62,164 nucleotides of DNA from Capsulimonadales bacterium (GTDB taxonomy: Bacteria; Armatimonadota; Armatimonadia; Armatimonadales; Armatimonadaceae): NCBI GenBank assembly GCA_033762295.1, contig JANRLW010000125.1:1-62164 (forward strand), written 5' to 3'. The notes beneath the pieces are model-generated. The model was given only the letters and a program-made list of their open reading frames with translations, did not search any database and was not told the DNA's origin. Position 1 is the stretch's first letter; each line of letters begins with the position of its first letter. The position numbers were made by a program, and so were the translations under genes. This document shows positions 58,623 to 62,164 of the stretch, piece by piece.

Positions 58623-60080
58623 ATGTCCCTAGATGCATTTACGAAACCTCCGGAGCGTTCCCGGTTCTCCGGGCGATCGCTGCTTTGGATCGCGTTGATC
58701 GTTCTCTGGGCGCTTTATGGCGTCGCCACTCTGCGGATGCATTTTCGTCCGTCCTTGCTTGCGTTTCCGCTCGCGATCATCGCCCTCCTGGTCGGCCGTT
58801 TCCATGCGAAGCGGCAGGGGCCGCCGTCGTATCCGGCCTGGTTCGTCGGGTTCGGCCTGCTGGCGGCGATTCCGGTAGGTTTGCTACTGACGCTGTCGAT
58901 CCGAATGGATTACATTCTGGATTACGAAGTCTTCCTGCAACTGGCAAAGAGCATTTATACGACCGGGAAGTATGAGGACTGGTACGGGACGGTGGCCTGG
59001 CGTCCGCCCGGTACGGCGCTCTGCTACGGCCTGCCGATGCGGCTCGGGTTGTCTCCGCAGCTGTCGGTCTGGCTGGTCAACTCCCTTCTCTTCGTCGCGG
59101 TTTTCGGATTTATCCGGGCGTGTCATCGGGTCTTTCCGGTGCGAAGTCACCTGTTCGGGATCGTTCCCGGCGCGCTGGTCCTCTGTCTGGCGACGCTTCC
59201 CTTCCTTCTGCTGCCGATCTCGCATCTGCCGTCGATCGCGACCATGATCGGCGTGCTCTGGCTGATTCCGACCTCGGCGGAGCTGCTGCGCCGGACCCCG
59301 CCGGTCCGATGGCTGGCGGCGGGCATCCTGATCGGACTCAGCACCCTGTTCCGCGCCAACCTGATCCTGCAATTTCCGGTGATCTGTGTCGCCCTGCTGA
59401 CCGCTCTGGGACCCCGTCCGTCGCTCGCCGTCGGTCGTCGGTTTCTGCTGGCAGCGGTCGCCTGTCTGGCGGGCGTCCTGCTGGCGATCATTCCCTGGTC
59501 GATCCGGAACTACCGTGTGCTGGGCCGCCCGGTCCTGATCTCCACGAACGGTGGCATGGTCTTCTATTCGGCCAACTGGCCCGCCCGCCCGTCCGAGCAG
59601 GGGATGTACCATGAGGAACTGCATAAGGAGATCGTCGCCGAGGTGCCGGACGAAGTGGACCGGGACAGGGTGGCCTGGCGCAAGGGCCTGGAAGCGATCC
59701 GCGCCCGTCCGATGGCTTTCGTGACGTCCTATCTCTACCGTATCCCGCGTCTTCTGGGCGACCCGCTGTTCCCCGTCAAGTACATCGGCTACCATGGCGA
59801 GGGTCCGTCCTACCTGTTGTCCGGTCTGAAACTGGCGGAACGAGCGGTCCTGATCGGGTTCTGGTGTCTGTGGCTGCAGATTCTGGTGTCGGCCGGCGCG
59901 ATCCGGGCGCGAGTACTGGACCCGGAGACGATTCCGTGGCCGCAGGTATCGCTGTTGCTGGTGGTATCGGTCTCTTCGATCTTCGAATGCTCACCGACCT
60001 ACCAGTTATCGTTCCTGCCCTTCGTTCTGGCGACGTGGCTAGGATCGCCCACCGGTTCCGCAAAAAACCGCGAACCCTGA
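58623..60080 (+). CDS. GT-C (ArnT/PMT-like) polytopic membrane glycosyltransferase
   Basis: Many TM helices; DYEVF..LAKSI..G, WRPPG, LFRAN, PWSIRNY..STNGG. Confidence 0.75.
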   Translation: MSLDAFTKPPERSRFSGRSLLWIALIVLWALYGVATLRMHFRPSLLAFPLAIIALLVGRFHAKRQGPPSYPAWFVGFGLLAAIPVGLLLTLSIRMDYILDYEVFLQLAKSIYTTGKYEDWYGTVAWRPPGTALCYGLPMRLGLSPQLSVWLVNSLLFVAVFGFIRACHRVFPVRSHLFGIVPGALVLCLATLPFLLLPISHLPSIATMIGVLWLIPTSAELLRRTPPVRWLAAGILIGLSTLFRANLILQFPVICVALLTALGPRPSLAVGRRFLLAAVACLAGVLLAIIPWSIRNYRVLGRPVLISTNGGMVFYSANWPARPSEQGMYHEELHKEIVAEVPDEVDRDRVAWRKGLEAIRARPMAFVTSYLYRIPRLLGDPLFPVKYIGYHGEGPSYLLSGLKLAERAVLIGFWCLWLQILVSAGAIRARVLDPETIPWPQVSLLLVVSVSSIFECSPTYQLSFLPFVLATWLGSPTGSAKNREP

Positions 60081-60144
60081 GCGTGAAAACTTCGTCCTGT
60101 TCTCAATCCGTCCATGACCGGGACTGATAAAAGCACACATACCC

Positions 60145-60175
60145 AACGCCTCCGAACTTCGGGGGCGTTTTTTTT
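60145..60175 (+). terminator. Intrinsic terminator 1
   Basis: AACGCCTCCGAAcTTCGGGGGCG followed by T8. Confidence 0.85.
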
Positions 60176-60228
60176 CGCCTGCGGCTTGATTTCACGATTT
60201 TTTAATGTTCGCCGGCTATACTTTCGGC

Positions 60229-60295
60229 GTGTGATCTCCTTTTCTCTCCACTCACTGTGGTAAGCCTCCGGGTACGTGCCGGGGGCTTTTCTTTT
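60229..60295 (+). ncRNA. Candidate ~65-nt sRNA with CU-rich (anti-SD-like) segment and own terminator
   Basis: TATACT at 60217-22 just after terminator 1, then GAUCUCCUUUUCUCUCC, then a second terminator; no ORF between the two terminators. Confidence 0.45.
60262..60295 (+). terminator. Intrinsic terminator 2
   Basis: AAGCCTCCGG-gtacgtg-CCGGGGGCTT followed by TTCTTTT. Confidence 0.8.
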
Positions 60296-60383
60296 GGTCG
60301 GGTTGTCCACTTTCCGGCCCGTTTTCGAAAATGGTATCCTTAGCGGTCAGACATACGGATCGTCCGCTCAAAGGAGAAAAACC

Positions 60384-60956
60384 ATGTTCCCTCGCTCCGT
60401 CCTTCGCTCTCCCTGCCCTTCCTGTCCGCTCACGCCGATTCAGCGTACGCTTTTGCAGACCGCCATCGACCTGGGCACCCTGGCGACCGAAACGCTCGCG
60501 CGTCACCTGCACCGGTCGCCGCATACGATCCGGACCGATTTCAAAAGAATCGCCCGGCGCTTGAACACCACCGGTCGGGAGGAGGCGATCTTTCGCGGGC
60601 TGCGCGAACGGTGGCTTGAGCCGACGTTTCTGACCGGTCGGGAGCGCGAGCGACGTTCGGTCTCGAATATTGCCCTAAATGTGGGGCATAACGACCGGTC
60701 GGTTAGTCGCCATAATCGGAATATGCGTAGAGAGGATCAAGAGGATTTCGTCGACCTGGTAGCCCAGGCGGTGATCGACCGGATCGAGGAACGCGACCGG
60801 ATCGAAGGACTCGTCAACCTGGTAGTGGCTCGTGTGTTCGAGATGCAGCGACAGGCAAGCGCGATGCAAAACGACGGCGGGTCACCCGATGTACCGGCGG
60901 CGGTAGCCGCCCCCGATTCCGAAAGGGAGGAAGTTCAAAATGTCTCAGAAAAATGA
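60384..60956 (+). CDS. Stand-alone LuxR/GerE-type HTH protein; the frame stays open into the downstream small gene
   Basis: RBS AAAGGAG; CPLTPIQRTLLQ..LARHLHRSPHTIRTDFKRIARRLNTTGREEAIFRGLRERWL; no receiver or ligand domain; no stop before 60956. Confidence 0.75.
   Translation: MFPRSVLRSPCPSCPLTPIQRTLLQTAIDLGTLATETLARHLHRSPHTIRTDFKRIARRLNTTGREEAIFRGLRERWLEPTFLTGRERERRSVSNIALNVGHNDRSVSRHNRNMRREDQEDFVDLVAQAVIDRIEERDRIEGLVNLVVARVFEMQRQASAMQNDGGSPDVPAAVAAPDSEREEVQNVSEK
60671..60716 (+). promoter_or_regulatory. Internal promoter: palindromic box plus -10 for a leaderless transcript
   Basis: TGCCCTA-aatg-TGGGGCA (60671-88) centred about 43 bp upstream of ATG 60723; CATAAT at 60711-16, 6 nt before the ATG; no SD. 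Confidence 0.55.
60723..60956 (+). CDS. Small two-helix hypothetical protein (probably separately initiated)
   Basis: MRREDQEDFVDLVAQAVIDRIEERDRIEGLVNLVVARVFEMQRQ: two similar amphipathic helices plus an acidic tail. Confidence 0.6.
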   Translation: MRREDQEDFVDLVAQAVIDRIEERDRIEGLVNLVVARVFEMQRQASAMQNDGGSPDVPAAVAAPDSEREEVQNVSEK

Positions 60957-61557
60957 ACCGGAAACCGCTCCGGACGCGATGGAACCTGTGGCGGATGTTC
61001 TCGGCGAAACCGGGAGGGCGGAGGCCCGCGCCCGTTTCGAGGCGGAGCGTCTGAGTCGTCGTCAGGCGTTGCGCAAGTTCGGCTTCGGCGCGGGGATGGC
61101 CGCCCTGATGGCCCTGTCCGCCGACGACCTGGCCCGCCTGGCCGCCGCCCGACTCGAACGGGTCGCCCGGGACAACCAAACCGCCCGCCAGATCGCCGAG
61201 GAATTCAAAAACGCCGGGATCGCACAGGCCGCGATGTCACCGTGCGCGGGGTGCGAGGATTGTCCACCTTATCCGAAGGCATTTAGCTGTACGCCGTGTT
61301 CGAAGCGTTGCGATAAGAATGGCAATACCCAGTATCTCGTCCTAGCCTTCGATTGCGCTCGCTTCCAAAATTGGGAAGTTGCCGTGGACTGTTGCGAGCA
61401 ACAGAAAGCTTATTGTGTGGCGAATTGCGATGCGAAATGCGGAACGCCGAAACCCAACGATCCCAAGGATCCGGTACTGACCTGTCGGGAAAAGTGCAAA
61501 GGAGAACATTGCACCCCACGTTATTTGGCCTGCAAACAGAAGATCACATCCAATTAA
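60940..61557 (+). CDS. Tat-like precursor with a 16-Cys C-terminal domain
   Basis: RBS GGGAGG; SRRQALRK plus a hydrophobic stretch (aa 39-60); AQA site at aa 95-97; then 108 aa containing 16 Cys. Confidence 0.8.
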   Translation: MSQKNEPETAPDAMEPVADVLGETGRAEARARFEAERLSRRQALRKFGFGAGMAALMALSADDLARLAAARLERVARDNQTARQIAEEFKNAGIAQAAMSPCAGCEDCPPYPKAFSCTPCSKRCDKNGNTQYLVLAFDCARFQNWEVAVDCCEQQKAYCVANCDAKCGTPKPNDPKDPVLTCREKCKGEHCTPRYLACKQKITSN

Positions 61558-61591
61558 ACGTCGTAGACATTCCCTTGACGGAGAGAACTCA

Positions 61592-62089
61592 ATGAAAAAA
61601 GCAATCGTGGTTATCGCAACCTTCGCTCTGATGAGTGCCGGTTGCGTCCAAACGGCCTCCTCGCCGACCGCTACAACAGCGACGGCAGCGGCGGACCGAA
61701 GCCTTCAAATTAAGTCGTTCGGGGCGTCCCTCATCAACAGCATAACCGAAGAAGACAAGAAGGCGTACCTCAACTCCTACGAGTATAAAGCTATGATGAA
61801 CGGGGGGGGGCAAGGAGTTGATAAGGCGCTGCCGGCATACCGACGGGCTAGCGCGGCCCGCCATGAGGGGCGGTTTGCCGACGCCCTGAAGGAATACGAG
61901 TACATTGGCAAGGTGTCCCCTGCCGAAAAGTACGACGCGAAATTGATGCAGGCATGGATCCTCACGAGGATGCAACGACGCCAGGAAGCGATCACACTGT
62001 TGACCGAGATCGCCCAATCGTCCAGTTACCTCGCTTCCGCCGCCAAAGTCAGACTGGCAAGGTTGAAGAGCGGTAAAGAGTTTTTCTGA
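61592..62089 (+). CDS. Lipoprotein with TPR-like helical C-terminus
   Basis: MKKAIVVIATFALMSAG-C lipobox, Thr/Ala linker, A..EGRFADALKEY and AWILTRMQRRQEAITLLTEI helices. Confidence 0.8.
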   Translation: MKKAIVVIATFALMSAGCVQTASSPTATTATAAADRSLQIKSFGASLINSITEEDKKAYLNSYEYKAMMNGGGQGVDKALPAYRRASAARHEGRFADALKEYEYIGKVSPAEKYDAKLMQAWILTRMQRRQEAITLLTEIAQSSSYLASAAKVRLARLKSGKEFF

Positions 62090-62164
62090 GTCCGGTCGCG
62101 GGGTCCGATCAGGTCACCAAATGGTTACAAATGGTTCGGGGGATGCGGAGCTTGATGAGCCCCC

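Follow-up and report, generated by a model that had tools for sequence, protein, structure and literature searches.

Among described systems, those closest to the locus reported here are the ranthipeptide and SCIFF classes of ribosomally synthesised peptides that are modified after translation (RiPPs; PapA-PapB and QhpC-QhpD; NF047865, TIGR03974, TIGR03906), in which a ribosomal precursor joins a conserved leader to a variable, cysteine-rich core that is matured by thioether-forming radical SAM/SPASM (rSAM/SPASM) enzymes. The locus lies at the end of a 62,164-nucleotide stretch of DNA from a Capsulimonadales bacterium of the phylum Armatimonadota (this whole stretch is ‘the window’ in what follows), and encodes a small helical protein (HEL), a precursor with a long leader and a Cys-rich tail (PRE), and a lipoprotein. 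PRE shares the ranthipeptide build and, in a sister clade of related loci, the enzyme encoded close to the precursor finds its best matches among these same maturases. There are also clear differences: no such maturase was found in the window, in the window’s genome or in the 29 related loci of PRE’s own clade (clade 1), save for one weak, fragmentary match in locus L060; the sister-clade enzymes score 225-262 bits, below the PapB cut-off of 340; the leader of PRE is about 97 residues long and carries a twin-arginine motif, and its core, at 60-110 residues, is of mini-protein size; and the partners in the cassette are HEL, a pilin and a thioredoxin-fold protein, rather than the RiPP recognition element (RRE), protease and ABC exporter of the ranthipeptide clusters.

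Other systems resemble the cassette in part. The escort proteins of the twin-arginine translocation (Tat) pathway (TorD for TorA, NapD for NapA, DmsD for DmsA) are likewise small cytoplasmic proteins whose genes lie beside that of a twin-arginine precursor; on the reading favoured below PRE too would need maturation before export, and one genome has a HEL-like gene coupled to tatA. HEL, however, has no sequence or profile similarity to these escorts or to any solved structure, its binding to the leader is putative, and the cargo is a tiny Cys-rich domain and not a cofactor enzyme. MauA, the small subunit of methylamine dehydrogenase, together with MauD, offers a second parallel, with a long leader of twin-arginine type, a small disulfide-rich mature protein and a gene for a CxxC thioredoxin-fold protein in the cluster; yet PRE does not match PF02975 and is not accompanied by genes for a dehydrogenase large subunit or MauG, its tails are hypervariable, and the Protein Atlas feature match that links the two (score 0.91, 130 shared features) is within the chance range. 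In polymorphic toxin and bacteriocin loci, and in conotoxin precursors, a conserved N-terminal targeting part is followed by a diverse C-terminus and a diverse small partner downstream, and the likeness extends to several copies per genome and to mosaic cassettes in which old alleles sit on 5' parts that are identical; the PRE cassette differs from toxin loci in that it has no known toxin or immunity domain and no dedicated type 5, 6 or 7 secretion (T5, T6 or T7) context, and in that tail and partner are seen to co-vary only among close kin. Long-leader RiPP precursors of the NHLP/Nif11 type, finally, also carry an unusually long conserved leader with many unrelated cores, in several paralogues per genome, whereas the PRE leader is not similar to theirs, ends in AxA rather than GG and contains a predicted export signal.

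Weighing these comparisons with the results below, we tentatively propose, at a little short of an even chance, that the cassette encodes a Tat-routed, leader-guided, Cys-cross-linked and polymorphic secreted mini-protein together with its cognate lipoprotein; the proposal is built from sequence comparison. The classes of mechanism that it calls upon (Tat export, leader-guided Cys cross-linking, a variable secreted protein with a partner) are each known, and it is their combination that is new. In the part of the literature that full-text searches could reach, we found no paper describing the leader family, HEL or the cassette. The features of the locus are as follows:

60384..60956, forward strand: open reading frame 1 (ORF1), 190 aa; a helix-turn-helix (HTH) domain, a non-conserved linker and HEL with no internal stop, and AAAGGAG (Shine-Dalgarno (SD)-like) before the ATG
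60423..60620, forward strand: HTH of LuxR/GerE type (sigma-70 region-4-like), aa 14-79 of ORF1; assigned from a sub-threshold GerE match and homology
60723..60956, forward strand: HEL part of ORF1, 77 aa from MRREDQ; helical core EDFVDLVAQAVIDRIEERDRIEGLVNLVVARV, acidic variable tail, no signal peptide
60940..61557, forward strand: PRE gene, 205 aa, acidic at the N-terminus; its first 17 nt overlap the end of ORF1, with GGGAGG (SD-like) upstream
61054..61077, forward strand: twin-arginine motif SRRQALRK, aa 39-46 of PRE; R40/R41 invariant in 62/62 aligned sequences
61078..61119, forward strand: h-region, aa 47-60, mildly hydrophobic and Gly/Ala-rich; within the helix 23-58 of the AlphaFold2 (AF2) model
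61120..61230, forward strand: conserved pro-helix, aa 61-97, Cys-free and ending in AQA (aa 95-97); AF2 helix 61-91, the last part of the leader of about 97 aa
61231..61554, forward strand: Cys-rich tail, aa 98-205, with 16 Cys; orphan sequence of lower third-position GC content (GC3) than the leader
61592..62089, forward strand: lipoprotein, 165 aa; putative signal sequence, lipobox-like SAGC with Cys18, a low-confidence linker and a helical domain resembling about three tetratricopeptide repeats (TPRs)
61817..62071, forward strand: TPR-like domain, aa 76-160 of the lipoprotein; AF2 pLDDT above 90

The evidence starts with the leader. A full HMMER scan of 1.84 billion representative proteins returned 249 relatives of PRE at E<=1e-3, of which 118 reach E<=1e-10 (below 1e-30 only PRE itself), most of them matching over query residues ~25-125, and with so many relatives in such a search the feature is, on sequence grounds, far beyond chance. 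Leader and tail statistics were taken from the best 150 of the 249 representatives, 137 of which fit the motif pattern used. All 150 contain the Arg pair, preceded by Ser or Thr in 141/148 and extended to RRxAL in 137/148, and the distance from RR to the end of the leader is exactly 57 residues in 136/137; that end is nearly always A-x-A (AFA in 57, ALA in 22, AMA in 15, with others making up the remainder), and 133/137 leaders are free of Cys. Mean column identity in the 62-sequence alignment is 18%, with R40, R41, G48, A86 and G93 invariant, and the median hydropathy of the h-region across the family is 1.67 (Kyte-Doolittle (KD), 15-mer). At the level of the motif only, PRE agrees with the Tat consensus [ST]-R-R-x-F-L-K with its invariant RR, a reading strengthened by the sister-clade relatives, which have the motif in canonical form, and the window’s genome encodes TatC (195 bits) and three TatA/B proteins.

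The AF2 model of PRE has confident helices at 23-58 and 61-91 (mean pLDDT of 88, 90 and 87 for the three 10-residue blocks covering residues 61-90; overall pLDDT 65.8, pTM 0.30), and its comparison with 48,161 chains (VIA-align) gave a best Z of 5.7 and nothing beyond generic helical hairpins. No NCBIfam model matches PRE, for which the sole name in any source is ‘hypothetical protein’, and the Protein Atlas places it in unnamed clusters, its one named feature match (0.91, to the methylamine dehydrogenase light chain) being within the stated chance range.

Beyond the leader, the family is hypervariable. The median tail is 81 aa long (range 3-291), and tails vary in the number and spacing of their Cys residues; counts are even and non-zero in 125 of the 137 (2-20 Cys), odd in 7 and zero in 5, with 8 tails holding 6 Cys, 22 holding 8, 31 holding 10, 32 holding 12, 14 holding 14, 10 holding 16 and 4 holding 18. 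As the counts are mostly even, the cysteines of the tails probably pair as disulfides. The tail in the window (aa 98-205) matched only itself in a search of 5.8 billion proteins and, against 132 family tails, again only itself apart from one 10-bit match; it contains a single His, GC3 breaks sharply inside the gene, being 0.77 for the leader and 0.55 for the tail, and the AF2 model is poor over residues 98-136, with helices at 145-167, 178-188 and 194-204. The preliminary description of this DNA had read the precursor correctly in every detail (SRRQALRK from aa 39, AQA at aa 95-97, 16 Cys all within aa 98-205, CxxC three times, CxxxC four times, CC once and no CxxCH), and the test that it had suggested came out as it foresaw, with a conserved leader and diverse Cys-rich tails. 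One tail ending, ...AVV.AC...C..IFGSGI, seen in the second PRE copy of the window’s genome (G000, contig C35), recurs on differing leaders (P0032, P0039, P0118); some tail classes therefore appear to be reused across lineages, whereas the tail in the window is an orphan.

The most faithful partner of PRE is HEL, as had been anticipated for the small helical protein next to the precursor: it stands directly upstream of PRE in 27/29 loci and, in 24 scorable pairs, its stop codon overlaps the nearest PRE ATG in 13, lies 4-49 nt before it in 11 and is more than 60 nt away in none. We take the two genes, coupled in translation, to be the invariant core of the cassette, with HEL as a cytoplasmic protein. 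A HEL profile matches 37/401 genomes of the phylum; every strong match adjoins a PRE gene, and the weak ones led to a divergent branch. The conserved helical core is about 40-45 residues long, with 8 invariant columns in a 25-sequence alignment (A3). HEL has no match in Pfam, NCBIfam or the Protein Atlas (its best PDB profile match, at E 0.38, is unrelated), and by Pfam, NCBIfam and PDB profiles it is not a sequence member of the Tat proofreading chaperones TorD/DmsD or NapD.

In the window, HEL is read in one frame with the HTH domain. What had been described as four co-oriented, tightly packed units, among them a solo LuxR-type HTH protein and a separate MRREDQ protein, is indeed co-oriented and tightly packed but consists of three ORFs: HTH and HEL form a single 190-aa frame, with no stop between them and no SD-like sequence at the internal ATG (60723). 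The label ‘LuxR’ survives in part, since the match to Pfam GerE (PF00196) is below cut-off (17.9 bits against 23.5; 17.1 bits for the C35 paralogue) but the domain is homologous to HTH genes at the same position elsewhere, sharing 42% identity across 66 aa (E 5e-17) with the HTH whose gene lies upstream of HEL2, the sister-clade HEL, in locus L085, and 33% with the C35 paralogue. At that paralogous locus HTH (84 aa) and HEL (81 aa) are separate genes, and HEL is a separate small ORF in the other related loci too. Nor is the HTH a constant member of the cassette, as first supposed: it is present in only 2/29 clade-1 loci, and also in P0099 and some sister-clade loci. P0099, a predicted protein of 336 aa in which a LuxR-like HTH, HEL and a PRE leader are read in one frame, is a second case of missing stops besides the window.

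Two observations concern the wider HEL family. In locus L088 (G298:C257, 5233-5840, minus strand) a HEL-like gene runs with its stop codon into the start of a gene of the TatA/B/E family (PF02416, 60 bits), the sole direct gene-level link between HEL and Tat that we noticed. In L099 (73-2450) and L100 (4389-6805), distant HEL-like genes with basic tails directly precede genes for signal-bearing proteins of 666-684 aa with C-terminal TPR repeats, and for that reason the HEL module may also serve other exported proteins.

Gene neighbourhoods were read from the flanks of the 29 clade-1 loci, which hold 32 PRE genes, using six-frame ORFs and seed searches, with counts made within 6 kb; 21 loci have >=3 kb of sequence on both sides, and Pfam calls were made on locus L056. 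ORFs and starts in related loci were called by six-frame scripts, and several loci are cut by contig ends. The counts, for all loci and for the 21-locus subset, are:

HEL: 27/29 loci; 19/21
TRX-like, a thioredoxin-fold protein: 24/29; 19/21
DUF1559 prepilin-type protein: 17/29; 14/21
2-Cys peroxiredoxin (PRX): 13/29; 12/21
HprK-like protein: 8/29; 7/21
NTP_transf_5 protein: 5/29; 4/21

The four-gene system originally put forward is thus, as a whole, only a fragment, and its relatives continue with the TRX-fold protein, the DUF1559 pseudopilin, the peroxiredoxin, and the HprK-like and NTP_transf_5 proteins. In L056 the TRX-like protein matches AhpC-TSA (43.6 bits) and Redoxin (38.5 bits) above their cut-offs, and its best NCBIfam match, ResA, falls below its own. 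W[AS]xSCPxC occurs in all 25 TRX-like ORFs, roughly 38 aa into the protein, and none has a hydrophobic N-terminus, so that the protein is predicted to lack a signal peptide. In the complete genome G312 there are four PRE genes and precisely four TRX homologues, every one <=1.5 kb from a PRE, and in G027 a single PRE and a single TRX homologue are neighbours; three genomes from the same genus that lack PRE have no TRX homologue, and two PRE-less genomes of the window’s family have one each. As far as gene content can tell, the association of TRX-like with PRE is specific. In G312 an insertion element (an HTH_23 protein and a DDE_3 transposase; L056:12615-13615) sits between the HprK-like and NTP_transf_5 genes.

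A sister clade of loci keeps the leader type and changes the enzyme. Here the gene order is HTH, HEL2, PRE2, DUF1559 pilin and an rSAM/SPASM enzyme, with a PapB-like rSAM/SPASM gene following PRE2 and the pilin in 5/7 loci; after PapB, the next-best NCBIfam models are the nif11-type (second), SCIFF and QhpD thioether maturases. The HTH matches Sigma70_r4 above cut-off in L086, L090 and L091 and is LuxR-like in L085; PRE2 has a canonical SRREFLK, SRRQFI or SRRRFIRK, the helix layout of PRE, and tails with repeated xxFxC; and TRX, PRX, HprK and NTP5 genes were not found in these loci. The earlier statement that no RiPP-modifying enzyme is visible holds for the window, but in the sister clade this leader type goes together with a PapB-like rSAM/SPASM maturase. 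Both clades display what looks, from gene order, like a conserved logic of HEL, a leader-bearing Cys-rich precursor, a pilin and a cytoplasmic enzyme that acts on Cys. Upstream of the sigma-like HTH in L086 (4421-4795, minus strand) there is an ORF that, by eye, resembles the C-terminal Cys-rich end of a second rSAM/SPASM enzyme, although it has no Pfam match.

Downstream of PRE, the window has a lipoprotein gene, whose product begins with a hydrophobic 15-mer (KD 2.41) and a lipobox-like SAGC at aa 15-18 (a regular-expression match). Its designation as a TPR lipoprotein is tentative: all 10 matches to Pfam TPR models are sub-threshold (best TPR_2, 21.1 bits against 27), but the top Foldseek matches of the model are all TPR proteins (1na3, SycD, PcrH, IpgC, YbgF), at weak E-values of 0.04-0.2, none reaching 0.001, and they include the peptide-binding class II secretion chaperones. 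The prediction of variable lipoproteins in this slot was also sound. A hydrophobic-N-terminus ORF of >=70 aa lies within 400 nt after 23/32 PRE genes, 13 of these having a lipobox-like small residue and Cys, and the anchored proteins are of several unrelated kinds: TPR-like (to which the window’s lipoprotein belongs; alignment A4), HEAT-like, ‘KRR...SPY’ and others.

A mosaic structure is seen in G017, in which three cassettes stand in tandem (locus L017). In the first two, the 5' ~290 nt of PRE and the 5' 240 nt of the lipoprotein gene are 100% identical in DNA, while the PRE tail and the lipoprotein C-terminus have diverged together, with proportions of synonymous differences (pS) of 0.69 and 0.74 and of non-synonymous differences (pN) of 0.27 and 0.28, respectively. 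Identical 5' parts joined to anciently diverged 3' parts suggest that the variable parts are old alleles riding on conserved parts that have been homogenised or exchanged; in the window’s PRE, the change in GC3 falls at the corresponding border. A 60-aa TRX-like remnant after the second cassette (L017:9505-9687; G017:C18) looks like a duplication scar.

From these findings, which establish the family, its division into leader and tail, the synteny, the mosaic cassettes and the presence of Tat genes, a tentative sequence of events can be drawn. PRE would be made together with HEL in the cytoplasm, and HEL would hold the leader while the tail is cross-linked; in clade 1 the cross-links would be disulfides, introduced by the signal-less CxxC thioredoxin-fold protein, often with the 2-Cys peroxiredoxin, that relatives encode beside PRE, and in the sister clade thioethers made by the PapB-like rSAM/SPASM enzyme. 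PRE would then be exported through the Tat pathway and its leader removed at AxA, to leave a stable mini-protein that meets the variable downstream lipoprotein, here a protein of three predicted TPRs, as its cognate binder. We favour a role for the lipoprotein in self-protection, or as the receptor for a bacteriocin-like or signalling product, and suggest that the dedicated DUF1559 pseudopilin may pass the mini-protein outward. The LuxR-type HTH, in the window fused in frame to HEL, would be an optional regulator.

Several observations weigh against this proposal. Neither the PRE of the window nor any of 62 members matches a Tat-signal model (Pfam TAT_signal, TIGR01409) at E<=10, although short models score low and the HMMER filters drop weak matches; and in the same 62 members no Pfam family is found in more than three at E<=10 (best E 0.0066), and no toxin-like or other domain is recognisable in the tails. 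The conserved AxA lies some 35 residues beyond the h-region, which is itself followed by DD, and this is atypical for signal peptidase I; a helix-turn-helix at the conserved GDN could return AxA to the membrane, although what the model has is a single long helix. Nine of the 32 PRE genes have no anchored protein downstream, and across 276 locus pairs the similarity of tails is uncorrelated with that of the downstream proteins (Spearman -0.03), which gives general co-variation of tail and lipoprotein no support; only the three closest locus pairs are alike in both, which may reflect common descent. Recent positive selection on the tails is rejected, the diverged tandem tails having a ratio of non-synonymous to synonymous substitution (dN/dS) of ~0.18, with dS saturated. 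The 29 loci, taken from related genomes, do not count as independent observations. In the window’s own genome the TRX-like homologues are on other contigs, no HprK-like, NTP_transf_5 or PapB-like gene was found (at 94% completeness), and genes for VKOR and DsbA-like proteins are present, so that disulfides could form after export; DsbB was not found there.

It is for this last reason, the VKOR and DsbA-like genes making post-export oxidation possible, that a bolder version of the scheme is kept apart from the proposal itself. In that version, which we consider unlikely but worth setting out, the leader is at once a maturation handle and a Tat signal; HEL escorts it, and the mini-proteins are cross-linked in the cytoplasm and exported folded, by way of thioethers in one clade and, here, of disulfides formed by a relay from peroxiredoxin to TRX with peroxide as the oxidant. 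If it were true, a cytoplasmic relay joined to Tat would be nature’s parallel to the engineered systems that couple disulfide formation in the cytoplasm with Tat export, and the cassette would be the first RiPP-like class with an export signal as its leader.

A quite different explanation, to which we give a lower probability again, is that PRE is a membrane-tethered sensor or regulator, held by an uncleaved h-region anchor, with the Cys-rich part as an outer redox or ligand sensor whose thiols TRX and PRX would tune, and with HEL as an anti-activator or anti-sigma-like partner of the HTH. The layout of PRE, N-in with a single span, would suit this, being typical of anti-sigma factors, and there is no signal-peptidase site directly after the h-region; redox enzymes are the commonest neighbours. 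An HTH gene lies directly upstream of HEL in both clades (LuxR-type in the window, G000:C35, L085 and P0099; Sigma70_r4 in L086, L090 and L091), and the in-frame HTH-HEL fusion in the window, with the HTH-HEL-leader frame of P0099, keeps a regulatory role for HEL alive as a second role. The HTH is nevertheless absent from 27/29 clade-1 loci, and as HEL is kept in 27/29 and the HTH in 2, the conserved job of HEL appears to be independent of the HTH. Hypervariable orphans at up to five copies per genome would be unusual for sensors, the invariant RR and the AxA at a fixed distance are left unexplained, and the rSAM of the sister clade, being of peptide-maturase type, points to a product and not to a sensor.

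A little less probable still is that PRE does yield a RiPP-like product, but one in which the decisive modification is not a disulfide: the HprK-like kinase, the NTP_transf_5 protein or an enzyme encoded past the contig end would modify the precursor under guidance of the leader, and the thioredoxin-fold protein would only keep its Cys reduced. Lasso-peptide kinases of the HPr-kinase family do phosphorylate precursors in a leader-dependent manner, and precursors with this leader type are, in the sister clade, paired with an rSAM maturase. The best NCBIfam matches of the HprK-like and NTP_transf_5 proteins, which are encoded in 8/29 and 5/29 loci, are HprK_rel_A/B and ScmC, families that we take to be defined by peptide-modification cassettes; but these matches reach 22-30 bits against a cut-off of 200, most loci have neither gene, both are missing from what has been assembled of the window’s genome, and the bias to even Cys numbers fits Cys-Cys pairing. 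As to a periplasmic metal- or cofactor-binding protein of metallothionein-like or copper-storage-like kind, loaded in the cytoplasm and hence sent through Tat, which commonly carries metal- or cofactor-loaded proteins, we regard this as very improbable, for although the tail is very rich in Cys with CxxC, CxxxC and CC motifs, single members of the 62 give marginal Fer4 matches (E 0.04-0.07, 1/62 members each) and the Atlas match to the Cys-rich, Tat-type methylamine dehydrogenase light chain provides a lead only, neither the number nor the spacing of Cys is conserved between members, tails are overwhelmingly even-numbered (125/137), the window’s tail has one His and no CxxCH, no family membership was found for any of the 62 members (the full-length Fe-S or metal-binding family that the preliminary description had named as fatal to its model was not seen, no Pfam family occurring in more than three members), and the diversity of paralogues with orphan tails is unlike a housekeeping metal protein.

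Should the proposal of a Tat-routed, cross-linked mini-protein be correct, the cassette would represent a novel route by which bacteria produce and export mini-proteins that are stable, cross-linked and highly diversifiable, and would link the leader logic of RiPPs to the Tat pathway. For one subfamily of the hugely expanded DUF1559 pseudopilins it would also provide the first functional setting, and the Cys-rich domains, each paired with a partner protein of its own, would form a natural library of scaffolds. The leader family itself is strikingly regular, with hundreds of members, an invariant RR and an AxA placed exactly 57 residues on.

The cassette has so far been found only in Armatimonadota, a little-studied phylum of which some Capsulimonadaceae have been cultured, and mostly in the order that includes this family. 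Among 401 genomes sampled evenly across the phylum, a PRE profile matches 25, namely 7/23 in the window’s own family, 11/29 in its sister family, 6 elsewhere and the window’s genome, with 1-5 copies per genome; a search for related loci with a narrower alignment (A2) gave one genome locus and two metagenome loci. Many copies lie at contig ends, as would fit repeated cassettes that are hard to assemble.

The window’s genome (5.16 Mb in 132 contigs, 94% complete, GC 0.623) contains exactly two PRE and two HEL genes. Its second locus is the following:

C35:580-1865, minus strand: HTH (84 aa), HEL (81 aa), PRE (201 aa; 580-1185) and lipoprotein as separate genes; the contig ends inside the lipoprotein gene

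In this genome the TRX-like homologues are found where contig C94 starts, on C70 beside a peroxiredoxin, and on C2 together with a lipoprotein and the DUF1559 pilin that matches best. Given these positions, and the failure to find HprK-like, NTP_transf_5 or PapB-like genes, the accessory genes are a property of the family and are not demonstrated for the copy in the window. Two of the sites are accessory modules that lack a precursor, C2:35570-37634 (lipoprotein, pilin, TRX-like) and C70:53843-54947 (peroxiredoxin, TRX-like), and the DUF1559 prepilin-type protein has 142 relatives among the ORFs of the genome at E<=1e-5.

At the window’s end (the window being contig C125) the three co-oriented ORFs, ORF1, PRE and the lipoprotein gene, each start with an SD-like sequence, and 34 nt separate PRE from the lipoprotein gene; no curated family is matched above its cut-off by any of the three proteins. 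The contig stops at 62164, 75 nt past the lipoprotein gene, so that any accessory neighbours would be invisible in the window, and its last 300 nt match only themselves among the contigs of the genome, giving no join to the TRX-like gene of C94. Upstream lies a gene for a 485-aa polytopic membrane protein (58623-60080) with no Pfam or NCBIfam match at E<=1, and an Rfam search of 59500-62164 found no family at E<=0.1. Two terminator-like hairpins stand between that gene and ORF1:

60145..60169, forward strand: terminator-like hairpin with an 11 bp stem and a T run, closing the upstream membrane-protein gene
60262..60288, forward strand: second terminator-like hairpin, 95 nt upstream of ORF1

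The first marks the 5' limit of the cassette’s transcription unit; the second, with only 95 nt between it and ORF1, might act as an attenuator instead of a terminator.

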